64,000 bases of DNA, taken from contig OZ024743.1 in NCBI GenBank assembly GCA_964016885.1, positions 229,772,001 to 229,836,000 on the forward strand, given 5' to 3'. Under the pieces are notes generated by a model. That model did no database searches. It had not been told where the DNA came from and worked only from the letters and a program-made list of their open reading frames with translations. How positions within the stretch are numbered: position 1 is the first letter of the stretch; each line of letters starts with the position of its first letter. The translations under genes and the position numbers were made by a program. The stretch is from Eledone cirrhosa. Its lineage: Eukaryota. Below, one piece after another: positions 2,228-6,778 of this stretch.

Positions 2228-5200
2228 TGGATATGTAGTCCTGATGATTTCTAACGAGAATGAAACGCGTAGATTACTTCCCTTGCTTTTATCGAGAATC
2301 TAATTGTAATACGTGACGTATTCTATTCTATAGCGATTAGGTCTTCAAAATGTTTATTATAAACATACAGAATATTTTCGAATATTCTATGTCTATATTC
2401 ACATATATATCGCTATTTCAGAGCATTTATTCCAATTTCTAATTTCTGCCGGACCGGCAACCGCTCTTTCAAACCAGTTCCTGTACACAGCTAAGTATTC
2501 TATAAGTCTCTAGCTGTGTCATTCTCGATAAAAGCACTGGATATGTAGTCCTGATGATTTCTAACGAGAATGAAACGCGTAGATTACTTCCCTTGCTTTT
2601 ATCGAGAATCTAATTGTAATACGTGACGTATTCTATTCTATAGCGATTAGGTCTTCAAAATGTTTATTATAAACATACAGAATATTTTCGAATATTCTAT
2701 GTCTATATTCACATATATATCGCTATTTCAGAGCATTTATTCCAATTTCTAATTTCTGCCGGACCGGCAACCGCTCTTTCAAACCAGTTCCTGTACACAG
2801 CTAAGTATTCTATAAGTCTCTAGCTGTGTCATTCTCGATAAAAGCACTGGATATGTAGTCCTGATGATTTCTAACGAGAATGAAACGCGTAGATTACTTC
2901 CCTTGCTTTTATCGAGAATCTAATTGTAATACGTGACGTATTCTATTCTATAGCGATTAGGTCTTCAAAATGTTTATTATAAACATACAGAATATTTTCG
3001 AATATTCTATGTCTATATTCACATATATATCGCTATTTCAGAGCATTTATTCCAATTTCTAATTTCTGCCGGACCGGCAACCGCTCTTTCAAACCAGTTC
3101 CTGTACACAGCTAAGTATTCTATAAGTCTCTAGCTGTGTCATTCTCGATAAAAGCACTGGATATGTAGTCCTGATGATTTCTAACGAGAATGAAACGCGT
3201 AGATTACTTCCCTTGCTTTTATCGAGAATCTAATTGTAATACGTGACGTATTCTATTCTATAGCGATTAGGTCTTCAAAATGTTTATTATAAACATACAG
3301 AATATTTTCGAATATTCTATGTCTATATTCACATATATATCGCTATTTCAGAGCATTTATTCCAATTTCTAATTTCTGCCGGACCGGCAACCGCTCTTTC
3401 AAACCAGTTCCTGTACACAGCTAAGTATTCTATAAGTCTCTAGCTGTGTCATTCTCGATAAAAGCACTGGATATGTAGTCCTGATGATTTCTAACGAGAA
3501 TGAAACGCGTAGATTACTTCCCTTGCTTTTATCGAGAATCTAATTGTAATACGTGACGTATTCTATTCTATAGCGATTAGGTCTTCAAAATGTTTATTAT
3601 AAACATACAGAATATTTTCGAATATTCTATGTCTATATTCACATATATATCGCTATTTCAGAGCATTTATTCCAATTTCTAATTTCTGCCGGACCGGCAA
3701 CCGCTCTTTCAAACCAGTTCCTGTACACAGCTAAGTATTCTATAAGTCTCTAGCTGTGTCATTCTCGATAAAAGCACTGGATATGTAGTCCTGATGATTT
3801 CTAACGAGAATGAAACGCGTAGATTACTTCCCTTGCTTTTATCGAGAATCTAATTGTAATACGTGACGTATTCTATTCTATAGCGATTAGGTCTTCAAAA
3901 TGTTTATTATAAACATACAGAATATTTTCGAATATTCTATGTCTATATTCACATATATATCGCTATTTCAGAGCATTTATTCCAATTTCTAATTTCTGCC
4001 GGACCGGCAACCGCTCTTTCAAACCAGTTCCTGTACACAGCTAAGTATTCTATAAGTCTCTAGCTGTGTCATTCTCGATAAAAGCACTGGATATGTAGTC
4101 CTGATGATTTCTAACGAGAATGAAACGCGTAGATTACTTCCCTTGCTTTTATCGAGAATCTAATTGTAATACGTGACGTATTCTATTCTATAGCGATTAG
4201 GTCTTCAAAATGTTTATTATAAACATACAGAATATTTTCGAATATTCTATGTCTATATTCACATATATATCGCTATTTCAGAGCATTTATTCCAATTTCT
4301 AATTTCTGCCGGACCGGCAACCGCTCTTTCAAACCAGTTCCTGTACACAGCTAAGTATTCTATAAGTCTCTAGCTGTGTCATTCTCGATAAAAGCACTGG
4401 ATATGTAGTCCTGATGATTTCTAACGAGAATGAAACGCGTAGATTACTTCCCTTGCTTTTATCGAGAATCTAATTGTAATACGTGACGTATTCTATTCTA
4501 TAGCGATTAGGTCTTCAAAATGTTTATTATAAACATACAGAATATTTTCGAATATTCTATGTCTATATTCACATATATATCGCTATTTCAGAGCATTTAT
4601 TCCAATTTCTAATTTCTGCCGGACCGGCAACCGCTCTTTCAAACCAGTTCCTGTACACAGCTAAGTATTCTATAAGTCTCTAGCTGTGTCATTCTCGATA
4701 AAAGCACTGGATATGTAGTCCTGATGATTTCTAACGAGAATGAAACGCGTAGATTACTTCCCTTGCTTTTATCGAGAATCTAATTGTAATACGTGACGTA
4801 TTCTATTCTATAGCGATTAGGTCTTCAAAATGTTTATTATAAACATACAGAATATTTTCGAATATTCTATGTCTATATTCACATATATATCGCTATTTCA
4901 GAGCATTTATTCCAATTTCTAATTTCTGCCGGACCGGCAACCGCTCTTTCAAACCAGTTCCTGTACACAGCTAAGTATTCTATAAGTCTCTAGCTGTGTC
5001 ATTCTCGATAAAAGCACTGGATATGTAGTCCTGATGATTTCTAACGAGAATGAAACGCGTAGATTACTTCCCTTGCTTTTATCGAGAATCTAATTGTAAT
5101 ACGTGACGTATTCTATTCTATAGCGATTAGGTCTTCAAAATGTTTATTATAAACATACAGAATATTTTCGAATATTCTATGTCTATATTCACATATATAT

Positions 5201-6778
5201 CGCTATTTCAGAGCATTTATTCCAATTTCTAATTTCTGCCGGACCGGCAACCGCTCTTTCAAACCAGTTCCTGTACACAGCTAAGTATTCTATAAGTCTC
5301 TAGCTGTGTCATTCTCGATAAAAGCACTGGATATGTAGTCCTGATGATTTCTAACGAGAATGAAACGCGTAGATTACTTCCCTTGCTTTTATCGAGAATC
5401 TAATTGTAATACGTGACGTATTCTATTCTATAGCGATTAGGTCTTCAAAATGTTTATTATAAACATACAGAATATTTTCGAATATTCTATGTCTATATTC
5501 ACATATATATCGCTATTTCAGAGCATTTATTCCAATTTCTAATTTCTGCCGGACCGGCAACCGCTCTTTCAAACCAGTTCCTGTACACAGCTAAGTATTC
5601 TATAAGTCTCTAGCTGTGTCATTCTCGATAAAAGCACTGGATATGTAGTCCTGATGATTTCTAACGAGAATGAAACGCGTAGATTACTTCCCTTGCTTTT
5701 ATCGAGAATCTAATTGTAATACGTGACGTATTCTATTCTATAGCGATTAGGTCTTCAAAATGTTTATTATAAACATACAGAATATTTTCGAATATTCTAT
5801 GTCTATATTCACATATATATCGCTATTTCAGAGCATTTATTCCAATTTCTAATTTCTGCCGGACCGGCAACCGCTCTTTCAAACCAGTTCCTGTACACAG
5901 CTAAGTATTCTATAAGTCTCTAGCTGTGTCATTCTCGATAAAAGCACTGGATATGTAGTCCTGATGATTTCTAACGAGAATGAAACGCGTAGATTACTTC
6001 CCTTGCTTTTATCGAGAATCTAATTGTAATACGTGACGTATTCTATTCTATAGCGATTAGGTCTTCAAAATGTTTATTATAAACATACAGAATATTTTCG
6101 AATATTCTATGTCTATATTCACATATATATCGCTATTTCAGAGCATTTATTCCAATTTCTAATTTCTGCCGGACCGGCAACCGCTCTTTCAAACCAGTTC
6201 CTGTACACAGCTAAGTATTCTATAAGTCTCTAGCTGTGTCATTCTCGATAAAAGCACTGGATATGTAGTCCTGATGATTTCTAACGAGAATGAAACGCGT
6301 AGATTACTTCCCTTGCTTTTATCGAGAATCTAATTGTAATACGTGACGTATTCTATTCTATAGCGATTAGGTCTTCAAAATGTTTATTATAAACATACAG
6401 AATATTTTCGAATATTCTATGTCTATATTCACATATATATCGCTATTTCAGAGCATTTATTCCAATTTCTAATTTCTGCCGGACCGGCAACCGCTCTTTC
6501 AAACCAGTTCCTGTACACAGCTAAGTATTCTATAAGTCTCTAGCTGTGTCATTCTCGATAAAAGCACTGGATATGTAGTCCTGATGATTTCTAACGAGAA
6601 TGAAACGCGTAGATTACTTCCCTTGCTTTTATCGAGAATCTAATTGTAATACGTGACGTATTCTATTCTATAGCGATTAGGTCTTCAAAATGTTTATTAT
6701 AAACATACAGAATATTTTCGAATATTCTATGTCTATATTCACATATATATCGCTATTTCAGAGCATTTATTCCAATTT
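2228..6778 (+). mobile_element. Tandem array of a 310-bp unit (~14.7 copies) with one type I hammerhead per unit; candidate non-LTR retrozyme
   Basis: CTGATGA recurs at 2241+310n up to 6581 (15 copies). Units look identical by eye. (TA)n on both flanks. Confidence 0.9.
2235..2277 (+). ncRNA. Minimal type I hammerhead ribozyme (first of 15, period 310)
   Basis: GTAGTC-CTGATGA-T TTCT AACG AGAA T-GAAAC GC GTA-GATTAC. Helix I GTAGTC/GATTAC, palindromic helix III ACGCGT, predicted cleavage after GUA at 2271. Confidence 0.88.

Follow-up and report, generated by a model that had tools for sequence, protein, structure and literature searches.

Metazoan non-LTR (non-long terminal repeat) retrozymes, described from coral, mussel and axolotl, are tandem arrays of non-coding units a few hundred base pairs long, each with a type I hammerhead ribozyme (HHR) (PMC7229834). 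How does such an RNA return to the genome? That RNA circles serve as templates and that Penelope-like elements (PLEs) act as helpers are both hypotheses, the latter offered as such in the accessible text of PMC7229834, and a 2026 preprint on vertebrate retrozymes leans to local expansion (10.64898/2026.07.22.740005). Here we describe an array at positions 2228–6778 of the window, a 64,000-nucleotide stretch of the Eledone cirrhosa genome. On every feature testable in sequence the array is a non-LTR retrozyme, and it is one insertion of a young, dispersed, genome-wide family. The kind of element is known; the anatomy of its insertions gives indirect, testable genomic evidence for rolling-circle, double-primed mobilisation by PLEs.

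The likeness to the described retrozymes goes further. Low GC, a self-paired predicted circle and PLEs in the same genome are reported for them too, and axolotl HHR_Amex2 likewise has a U.U at the base of helix II (PMC7229834). Unlike those retrozymes, as presented in the accessible text, the present family has arms joined head-to-head, two fixed ends per insertion, a (TA)n target and A>G changes that are inherited. The described retrozymes were also shown to be expressed and to cleave, whereas the present one is read from sequence. Vertebrate retrozymes have been described as non-autonomous PLE derivatives (10.64898/2026.07.22.740005), and a link to PLEs is common to both cases. There the link is made by co-occurrence and pLTR similarity, with local tandem expansion suggested, whereas here it comes from insertion anatomy, the arrays appear to arrive ready-made and the nearest relative is an older retrozyme family, not a pLTR. 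Inverted arrays, tails and inherited editing are not mentioned in the accessible text of PMC7229834 or of the preprint, supplements aside, and a literature search covering few subscription journals and no supplements returned no report of retrozyme arrays with inversion, tails or editing. It may be that the footprint is general and has simply gone unreported elsewhere.

What is known about the insertion of PLEs themselves? Their insertions carry an inverted 5'-truncated copy and a 30–40-bp tail, often at one end only, and lie in (TA)n targets (PMC8557442). One PLE protein, which is predicted to dimerise, makes cuts in both strands of AT-rich DNA and initiates cDNA at two sites within the RNA, with the tail between them (PMC11167929). 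GIY-YIG PLEs, as the accessible texts describe them (PMC8557442, PMC3846280, PMC11167929), resemble the present case in the head-to-head inverted 5'-truncated copy, the 30–40-nt one-end tail, the (TA)n or AT-rich target, the microhomology joins and a hammerhead upstream of two internal start sites. Unlike GIY-YIG PLEs, the retrozyme is without protein, both its arms are many-unit arrays, and no PLE-end sequence in the sample matches it. L1 twin priming likewise uses one primer from each target strand and leaves a 5'-to-5' inversion with microhomology at the join. Unlike L1, the retrozyme has second priming as its rule (142 two-armed against 8 one-armed insertions), its two start sites are fixed and lie inside the unit, and each product is longer than one unit.

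The array and its family

A sequence-only reading of the window had described about 14.7 identical 310-bp non-coding units between (TA)n tracts, and this is confirmed. The 310-bp period is exact over the whole array, giving 14 full units plus 211 nt (14.68 units in the assembly), with 0 differences among units over about 4.5 kb and (TA)n at 2208–2227 and 6779–6920. No frame of at least 150 aa lies within the array, so the unit is non-coding; its 310 bp fall within the 150–450 bp typical of non-LTR retrozymes, and its GC content is 0.35. Unit positions are counted from 2228 as position 1, which places the predicted cut after position 44. The array is one-armed: its 5' end is at unit position 1 and its 3' end at position 211, within the priming site called B below. 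In the last unit site A falls at 6741, and the array stops at site B, 6778. Its parts, with the evidence for each, are as follows.

2208–2227, no strand: left (TA)n target tract, at the 5'-truncated end (sequence)
2228–6778, plus strand: one-armed retrozyme insertion of 14.68 identical 310-bp units, 3' end at site B (period analysis, end positions)
2235–2277, plus strand: type I hammerhead fold of unit 1, found 15 times, every 310 bp; core 2241–2271, predicted cut after 2271 (motif, helices, sister covariation)
2272–2581, plus strand: predicted monomer between successive cuts, which would give a 310-nt circle (predicted cut sites)
2284–2536, plus strand: long closing stem (2284–2299 with 2521–2536) round a multi-branched body, with recurrent A>G sites 64 and 303 (fold, variants)
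2331–2424, plus strand: core that recurs in the older sister family, made up of a stem, an AU hairpin and site A; it may serve the PLE enzyme as a recognition element (alignment, consensus fold)
2401–2443, plus strand: site A (about 174), 35–40-nt 'tail' and site B (207–216) (3' ends of sampled insertions)
6779–6920, no strand: right (TA)n target tract, at the primed 3' end (sequence)

The window lies on C4 of a 3.0-Gb genome. Genome-wide counts are exact pattern matches: 15,072 for an internal 30-mer, 4,204 for the window's own ribozyme variant and, on the forward strand, 765 for B ends that run into TA (the reverse-strand count is inflated through multiple listing). The estimate is about 1,500 insertions and about 15,000 units, or about 10 units each (sample mean 9.8). 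Besides the window, 150 stretches were examined, chosen by ribozyme match (10), B-end patterns (90) or the A-end pattern (50); most are on C1 and come from the first places listed among the matches. Together they hold 155 groups: 138 two-armed, 8 one-armed (4 ending at A, 4 at B), 6 interrupted at an edge or gap, and 3 short matches to the sister family. The dispersed arrays with variable phase that the sequence-only reading had proposed to look for are present, in TA runs and with variable 5' positions.

Two very long arms were seen, one of over 45 units (L256 and L296, G000:C1:217.795–217.809 Mb) and one of about 37 (L230 and L295); they are possibly source arrays or the result of later expansion. 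A dense minus-strand cluster of B-end pattern matches at G000:C14:25.02–25.23 Mb is probably a different large repeat.

Could the array be an ordinary satellite, or not be real at all? A classical satellite, with few long arrays, arbitrary ends and growth in place, does not match about 1,500 short arrays with fixed 3' ends. The earlier call of a candidate non-LTR retrozyme, recent and no ordinary satellite, is supported, as are its dispersal and PLE-type ends. The idea that the perfect array is an assembly artefact, or a satellite with a chance hammerhead-like motif, can draw on the zero differences over 4.5 kb, which could be consensus smoothing, and on the lack of an Rfam match. It is nevertheless extremely unlikely, given locus-specific haplotypes and singletons in other arrays, fixed ends, a fold conserved in a diverged sister family, and contigs of four public runs that contain the 310-bp unit and its head-to-tail joint, one of them, perhaps from the source sample, with TA ends at positions 183 and 214. 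Runs X1, X2 and X6, which bear differing organism labels, carry the window variant and the joint unchanged and lack the other variants seen in the genome. These three may be RNA runs, relatives or cross-contamination, and the joint fits a circle or a tandem array alike. No RNA dataset was listed as containing the unit, which speaks neither for nor against expression.

Two fixed 3' ends and head-to-head arms

The one-armed form of the window is an exception in its family. Two-armed insertions are head-to-head, so that each outer end is a 3' end in the RNA sense and abuts TA. Of the two, one lies at site A, mostly at 174 and up to 183 where the unit itself resembles TA, and the other at site B, 207–216, about 35–40 nt away. 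All 138 two-armed insertions have A paired with B (one B end is hidden by a variant). Among the six edge- or gap-cut groups four resolve in the same way and two stay open (L050, which runs into N, and L256, with an arm of over 14 kb). The pairing therefore holds in 142/142 resolved two-armed insertions, with 0 cases of A+A and 0 of B+B. Is this a product of how loci were chosen? As most were picked on one end, the test is the opposite end, which was always of the other class; the pairing is independent of selection by ribozyme, A end or B end, and 9/9 two-armed loci picked by ribozyme are A+B. Three loci that had appeared to be A+A (L083, L122 and L259) turned out to be B+A on full sequence.

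The inner ends behave quite differently from these fixed outer ones. Inner 5' ends are uniform over the unit (chi-square p 0.14), and only 8/270 lie near the cut site. The 135 simple junctions comprise 79 with an overlap, 17 blunt ones and 39 with added bases; where no bases are added, 59 of 96 overlap by at least 2 nt (18% expected by chance). The median arm is 979 nt (A) or 1,487 nt (B), and both arms reach at least two units in 87/135. TA flanks both sides of 140/149 groups. Strings of at least 14 nt common to both flanks were found in 15/145, all low-complexity, and (TA)n would hide a target-site duplication, which in non-LTR retrozymes exceeds 4 bp when there is one.

Fold-back self-priming as the source of the inversion was rejected, since the starts of the two arms are unrelated in position and their fixed ends differ. 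The inverted arm is absent at the window's locus, and the single arm there is one of the longest: a length of 14.6 units is reached by 8 of 278 sampled arms. Its start at the ribozyme is the only such start in the genome; with this single case and uniform 5' ends elsewhere, a ribozyme start was rejected as a family trait.

The one-end tail given by A+B, the head-to-head 5'-truncated inverted copy and the (TA)n target are all PLE hallmarks. From these ends, the inversion and the tail we infer insertion by the same chemistry: the retrozyme was very probably inserted by PLE-type double priming, one strand at A and the other at B. Mobilisation by PLEs, cited in the sequence-only reading as the view taken of metazoan non-LTR retrozymes in general, now finds support in the PLE-type ends of every resolved two-armed insertion and in the TA flanks. 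The same anatomy bears on an argument made earlier for rolling-circle copying, that the array holds a non-integer number of units. A fixed 3' priming site combined with random 5' truncation accounts for this number, which is not a consequence of the circle itself.

The predicted ribozyme and an older sister family

Each unit had been credited with a complete, minimal type I HHR. The type I part stands: the core CUGAUGA...GAAA...GUA occurs in 15 copies on the plus strand (2241–2271 +310n, with predicted cleavage after 2271+310n), and core and three helices are present in 15/15 units. Helix I is GUAGUC/GAUUAC, 6 bp, extended beyond an internal loop; helix II is UUCU/AGAA, 4 bp, on a U.U mismatch; helix III is 2 bp with the palindrome ACGCGU, whose self-duplex is at -7.5 kcal/mol. 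The label 'minimal' has to be dropped by the definition of PMC4209133, where the min-HHR of PLEs has no helix III, a helix II of 7–8 bp and G10.1-C11.1, whereas here helix III is a 2-bp palindrome, helix II has 4 bp and the U.U is present. As read from its sequence, the predicted ribozyme matches the canonical metazoan type I form of that paper, which, with its weak palindromic helix III, is expected to cleave as a dimer (PMC4209133). Detection by the Rfam hammerhead models, proposed as a check, failed: there was no hammerhead match at gathering score and none among the 6 matches up to E 10. The ribozyme call thus rests on the motif, on helices read by eye and on covariation in relatives.

Variants seen in the family bear on the helices. 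T21A closes the U.U pair of helix II in 24/143 insertions, and A10G, G11A and A46G leave helix I paired. The circular monomer has a predicted fold at -67.8 kcal/mol (z -4.0 against 100 dinucleotide shuffles), and its minus strand too folds better than shuffles (z -4.9).

The relatives were found through a motif in a public contig, which led to L123 and to an older sister family with a unit of about 320 bp. Its tail variant has 2,442 matches in the genome, and the loci L123–L153, on C1 and C3, fall into several subfamilies. The sister unit aligns with that of the window, and sites A and B, TA targets and inverted arms are all retained; both sites were called in 8/31 loci, several of which are the same insertion. 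Helix III is longer and canonical there, and some members have a U3-A8 core variant of the kind noted in PMC4209133. The three-way consensus fold, kept in the sister family, has 86 pairs, of which 21 are changed on both sides, above all 500 shuffles. The sequences suggest a retrozyme lineage that has evolved as structured RNA for some time.

The probable template and the search for a PLE partner

What was copied into the genome? Variants were compared in 143 insertions (about 1,374 units), 'fixed' meaning present in at least 80% of copies and in at least two. There are 48 haplotypes, each nearly uniform inside an insertion and common to both arms; non-fixed variants amount to 0.56 per kb, and 51/143 insertions have none. 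In the RNA sense A>G makes up 18/44 fixed substitutions and 11/148 singletons (p 7e-7); it is 17/43 without position 29, whose direction is unsure, and 12/27 among private fixed substitutions. The A>G to T>C ratio is 18:6 for fixed changes and 11:26 for singletons. The arms point opposite ways, so the bias is not an assembly strand artefact. The changed A follows U in 12/17 (36/92 overall, p 0.005) and G in 1/17 (15/92 overall), and its mean pairing in the predicted fold is 0.80, against 0.56 overall. Sites 10, 64 and 303 recur on 7, 5 and 5 backgrounds, and 34/143 insertions have at least one fixed A>G, single ones up to four. ADAR prefers 5' neighbours in the order U>A>C>G. That it has neighbour preferences and finds a 5' G difficult is described in PMC11334849. 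The fixed A>G pattern suggests an ADAR-edited RNA template. The excess of T>C (26) over A>G (11) among singletons could reflect reverse-transcriptase wobble errors.

Is editing needed to explain the fixed changes? A DNA circle, or a circle replicated as RNA, might have been the template, with polymerase errors filtered by selection on RNA structure. A-U to G.U preserves pairing and most changed A are paired, and RNA-to-RNA steps have been suggested for retrozymes (PMC7229834, PMC4209133). However, C>T preserves pairing equally and is, with T>C, at the top of the singletons (26/148) but only 2/44 of the fixed changes, whereas the 5'-U bias and clusters of 3–4 A>G per insertion fit a deaminase; this explanation is highly improbable. 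The same data bear on growth in place, in which PLE-type insertions of one or two units would have expanded by unequal crossover or slippage and been homogenised by gene conversion, as proposed for vertebrate retrozymes (10.64898/2026.07.22.740005). Internal repeats of variants in 6 arms do show some local exchange. Yet both opposite-orientation arms are multi-copy in the 87/135 already given and share private variants, DNA-level change would be strand-symmetric and not A>G in the RNA sense, and the low level of non-fixed variants leaves little time for expansion at about 1,500 sites, so that growth in place is very unlikely.

An edit present in every unit of both arms implies that a template of monomer length was copied repeatedly, in the insertion or in an ancestor. 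This template would be a circle, or a monomer on which copying made repeated in-register jumps. Rolling-circle copying of a monomer, already argued in the sequence-only reading, therefore keeps its place, on the evidence of A>G fixed in all units of both arms and not on that of copy number, and an edited monomer circle is likely the usual template. L062 has A10G in all 7 A-arm units and only in units 4 and 5 of the B arm, which would fit editing during copying, or conversion.

Alternatively, the same double priming by a PLE could have used an uncleaved linear or multimeric circular transcript, with monomer circles rare or absent and the ribozyme largely a passenger. In-register mosaics in both arms of L101, L075 and L090, the weak-looking ribozyme and the preference of a PLE enzyme for unprocessed RNA in vitro (PMC11167929) all favour it. 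Against it, edits on a multimer would strike units independently, and A>G is enriched only in all-copy variants, not in singletons; arrays copied only from arrays would shorten, yet arms reach about 37 units and more; and a monomer bottleneck is needed somewhere in the ancestry anyway. We regard this alternative as unlikely.

Copying of an edited 310-nt RNA circle into cut (TA)n by a PLE reverse transcriptase/endonuclease is, as a whole mechanism, probable. In read-through transcripts of an array, self-cleavage would occur after position 44, with the ribozymes probably acting as dimers; ligation would then turn the monomers into 310-nt circles, as known retrozymes suggest. Host ADAR would at times edit the self-paired RNA. 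A PLE protein, probably a dimer, would then cut both (TA)n strands, one being primed at site A and the other, 35–40 nt apart, at site B, in keeping with the fixed ends observed. Each cDNA would make a varying number of turns on the template (about 4 as the median, and as many as about 37 in resolved arms) before being joined 5' to 5' with the other at short microhomology, giving the head-to-head arrays observed, the order of events being our reconstruction. The window copy would represent the less common outcome, extension of the B-primed arm alone. The more specific version, a two-headed rolling circle in which a PLE dimer primes both cut strands on one ADAR-edited circle and both enzymes run round it, has about an even chance of being right.

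Several points weigh against this mechanism. In L101 the haplotype changes two units into each arm, L075 and L090 carry a one-unit variant in register in both arms, L077 and L205 carry a shared non-fixed variant out of register between arms, and 6 arms repeat a non-fixed variant internally. A monomer circle does not explain such mosaics and repeats, which call for multimer templates or later gene conversion. The predicted ribozyme looks weak, with U.U at the base of helix II and 2 bp in helix III, and the core does not pair correctly in the predicted circle; among predicted Xenopus retrozymes 8 of 9 failed to cleave in vitro (10.64898/2026.07.22.740005). The 12 core positions hold 0 fixed variants, which counts in favour of the mechanism but weakly, at 12/310 positions with 46 variants in all, and the covariation control in the sister comparison keeps no phylogeny and uses a structure derived from the same alignment. 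In vitro, moreover, RNA that had not been cleaved was the main template of a PLE, for which ribozyme cleavage was dispensable (PMC11167929). Lastly, no partner PLE was found: the retrozyme core profile is unmatched in 50 GIY-YIG and 30 Hydra-like loci and in the window beyond base 7000, its only strong matches being 4 loci that carry sister-family insertions, in a search that scored 150 of 10,596 GIY-YIG candidates. None of the PLE tails seen (about 35, 42, 60 and 67 nt) resembles the retrozyme tail in sequence.

The family is useful in several respects. It provides about 1,500 very recent insertions whose footprint hardly varies and in which the all-copy A>G marker separates monomer from multimer templates. 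For biochemical work on PLEs it supplies a 310-nt substrate on which two start sites are mapped, and it bears on the unexplained inversion and tail of PLEs. If the two-headed circle is true, RNA edits are written into the germ line, animal retrozyme circles are true retrotransposition templates, and one mechanism explains PLE inversion, tail and tandem structure.

A PLE for comparison, separate from the array, lies in the same window.

28826–33210, plus strand: comparator PLE with an 835-aa frame for RT (reverse transcriptase) and a GIY-YIG-like domain (30112–32619), (TA)n on both sides

It is 5'-truncated and young, with a 99.9% inverted arm (28849–30163), a hammerhead-like motif and a 42-nt tail at one end only. 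Its endonuclease region reads as Hydra-like. Named homologues of a PLE in the window come from bivalves at 45–47% identity. Other PLE families of this genome have the same inversion and tail. Older copies of the comparator lie at 24229–26472 and 62303–64000. Another PLE, at 50850–54693, has RT and GIY-YIG (51783–53342), an inverted arm, a tail of about 35 nt and no canonical hammerhead by pattern; it is nearest to the retrozyme in tail length, while the sequence is not alike. A very common PLE-end-like element with a tail of about 67 nt (28707–28826 on the minus strand, also L128, L189, L221 and L257) has a hammerhead core and helix II that nearly match the window ribozyme. Tiny two-armed insertions of PLE end and tail only, at 33210–33513 and 14040–14260, are nested in the TA tract beside a PLE. 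Short palindromic elements between TA tracts, with inverted hammerhead-like motifs, lie at 11023–11244, 33627–34033 and 55651–56522; they probably belong to other PLE or retrozyme families, as two-armed insertions that have been truncated. Decayed remains of non-LTR retrotransposons (RT fragments; endonuclease and zinc-finger frames) occupy 1–1250 and 15423–22000.

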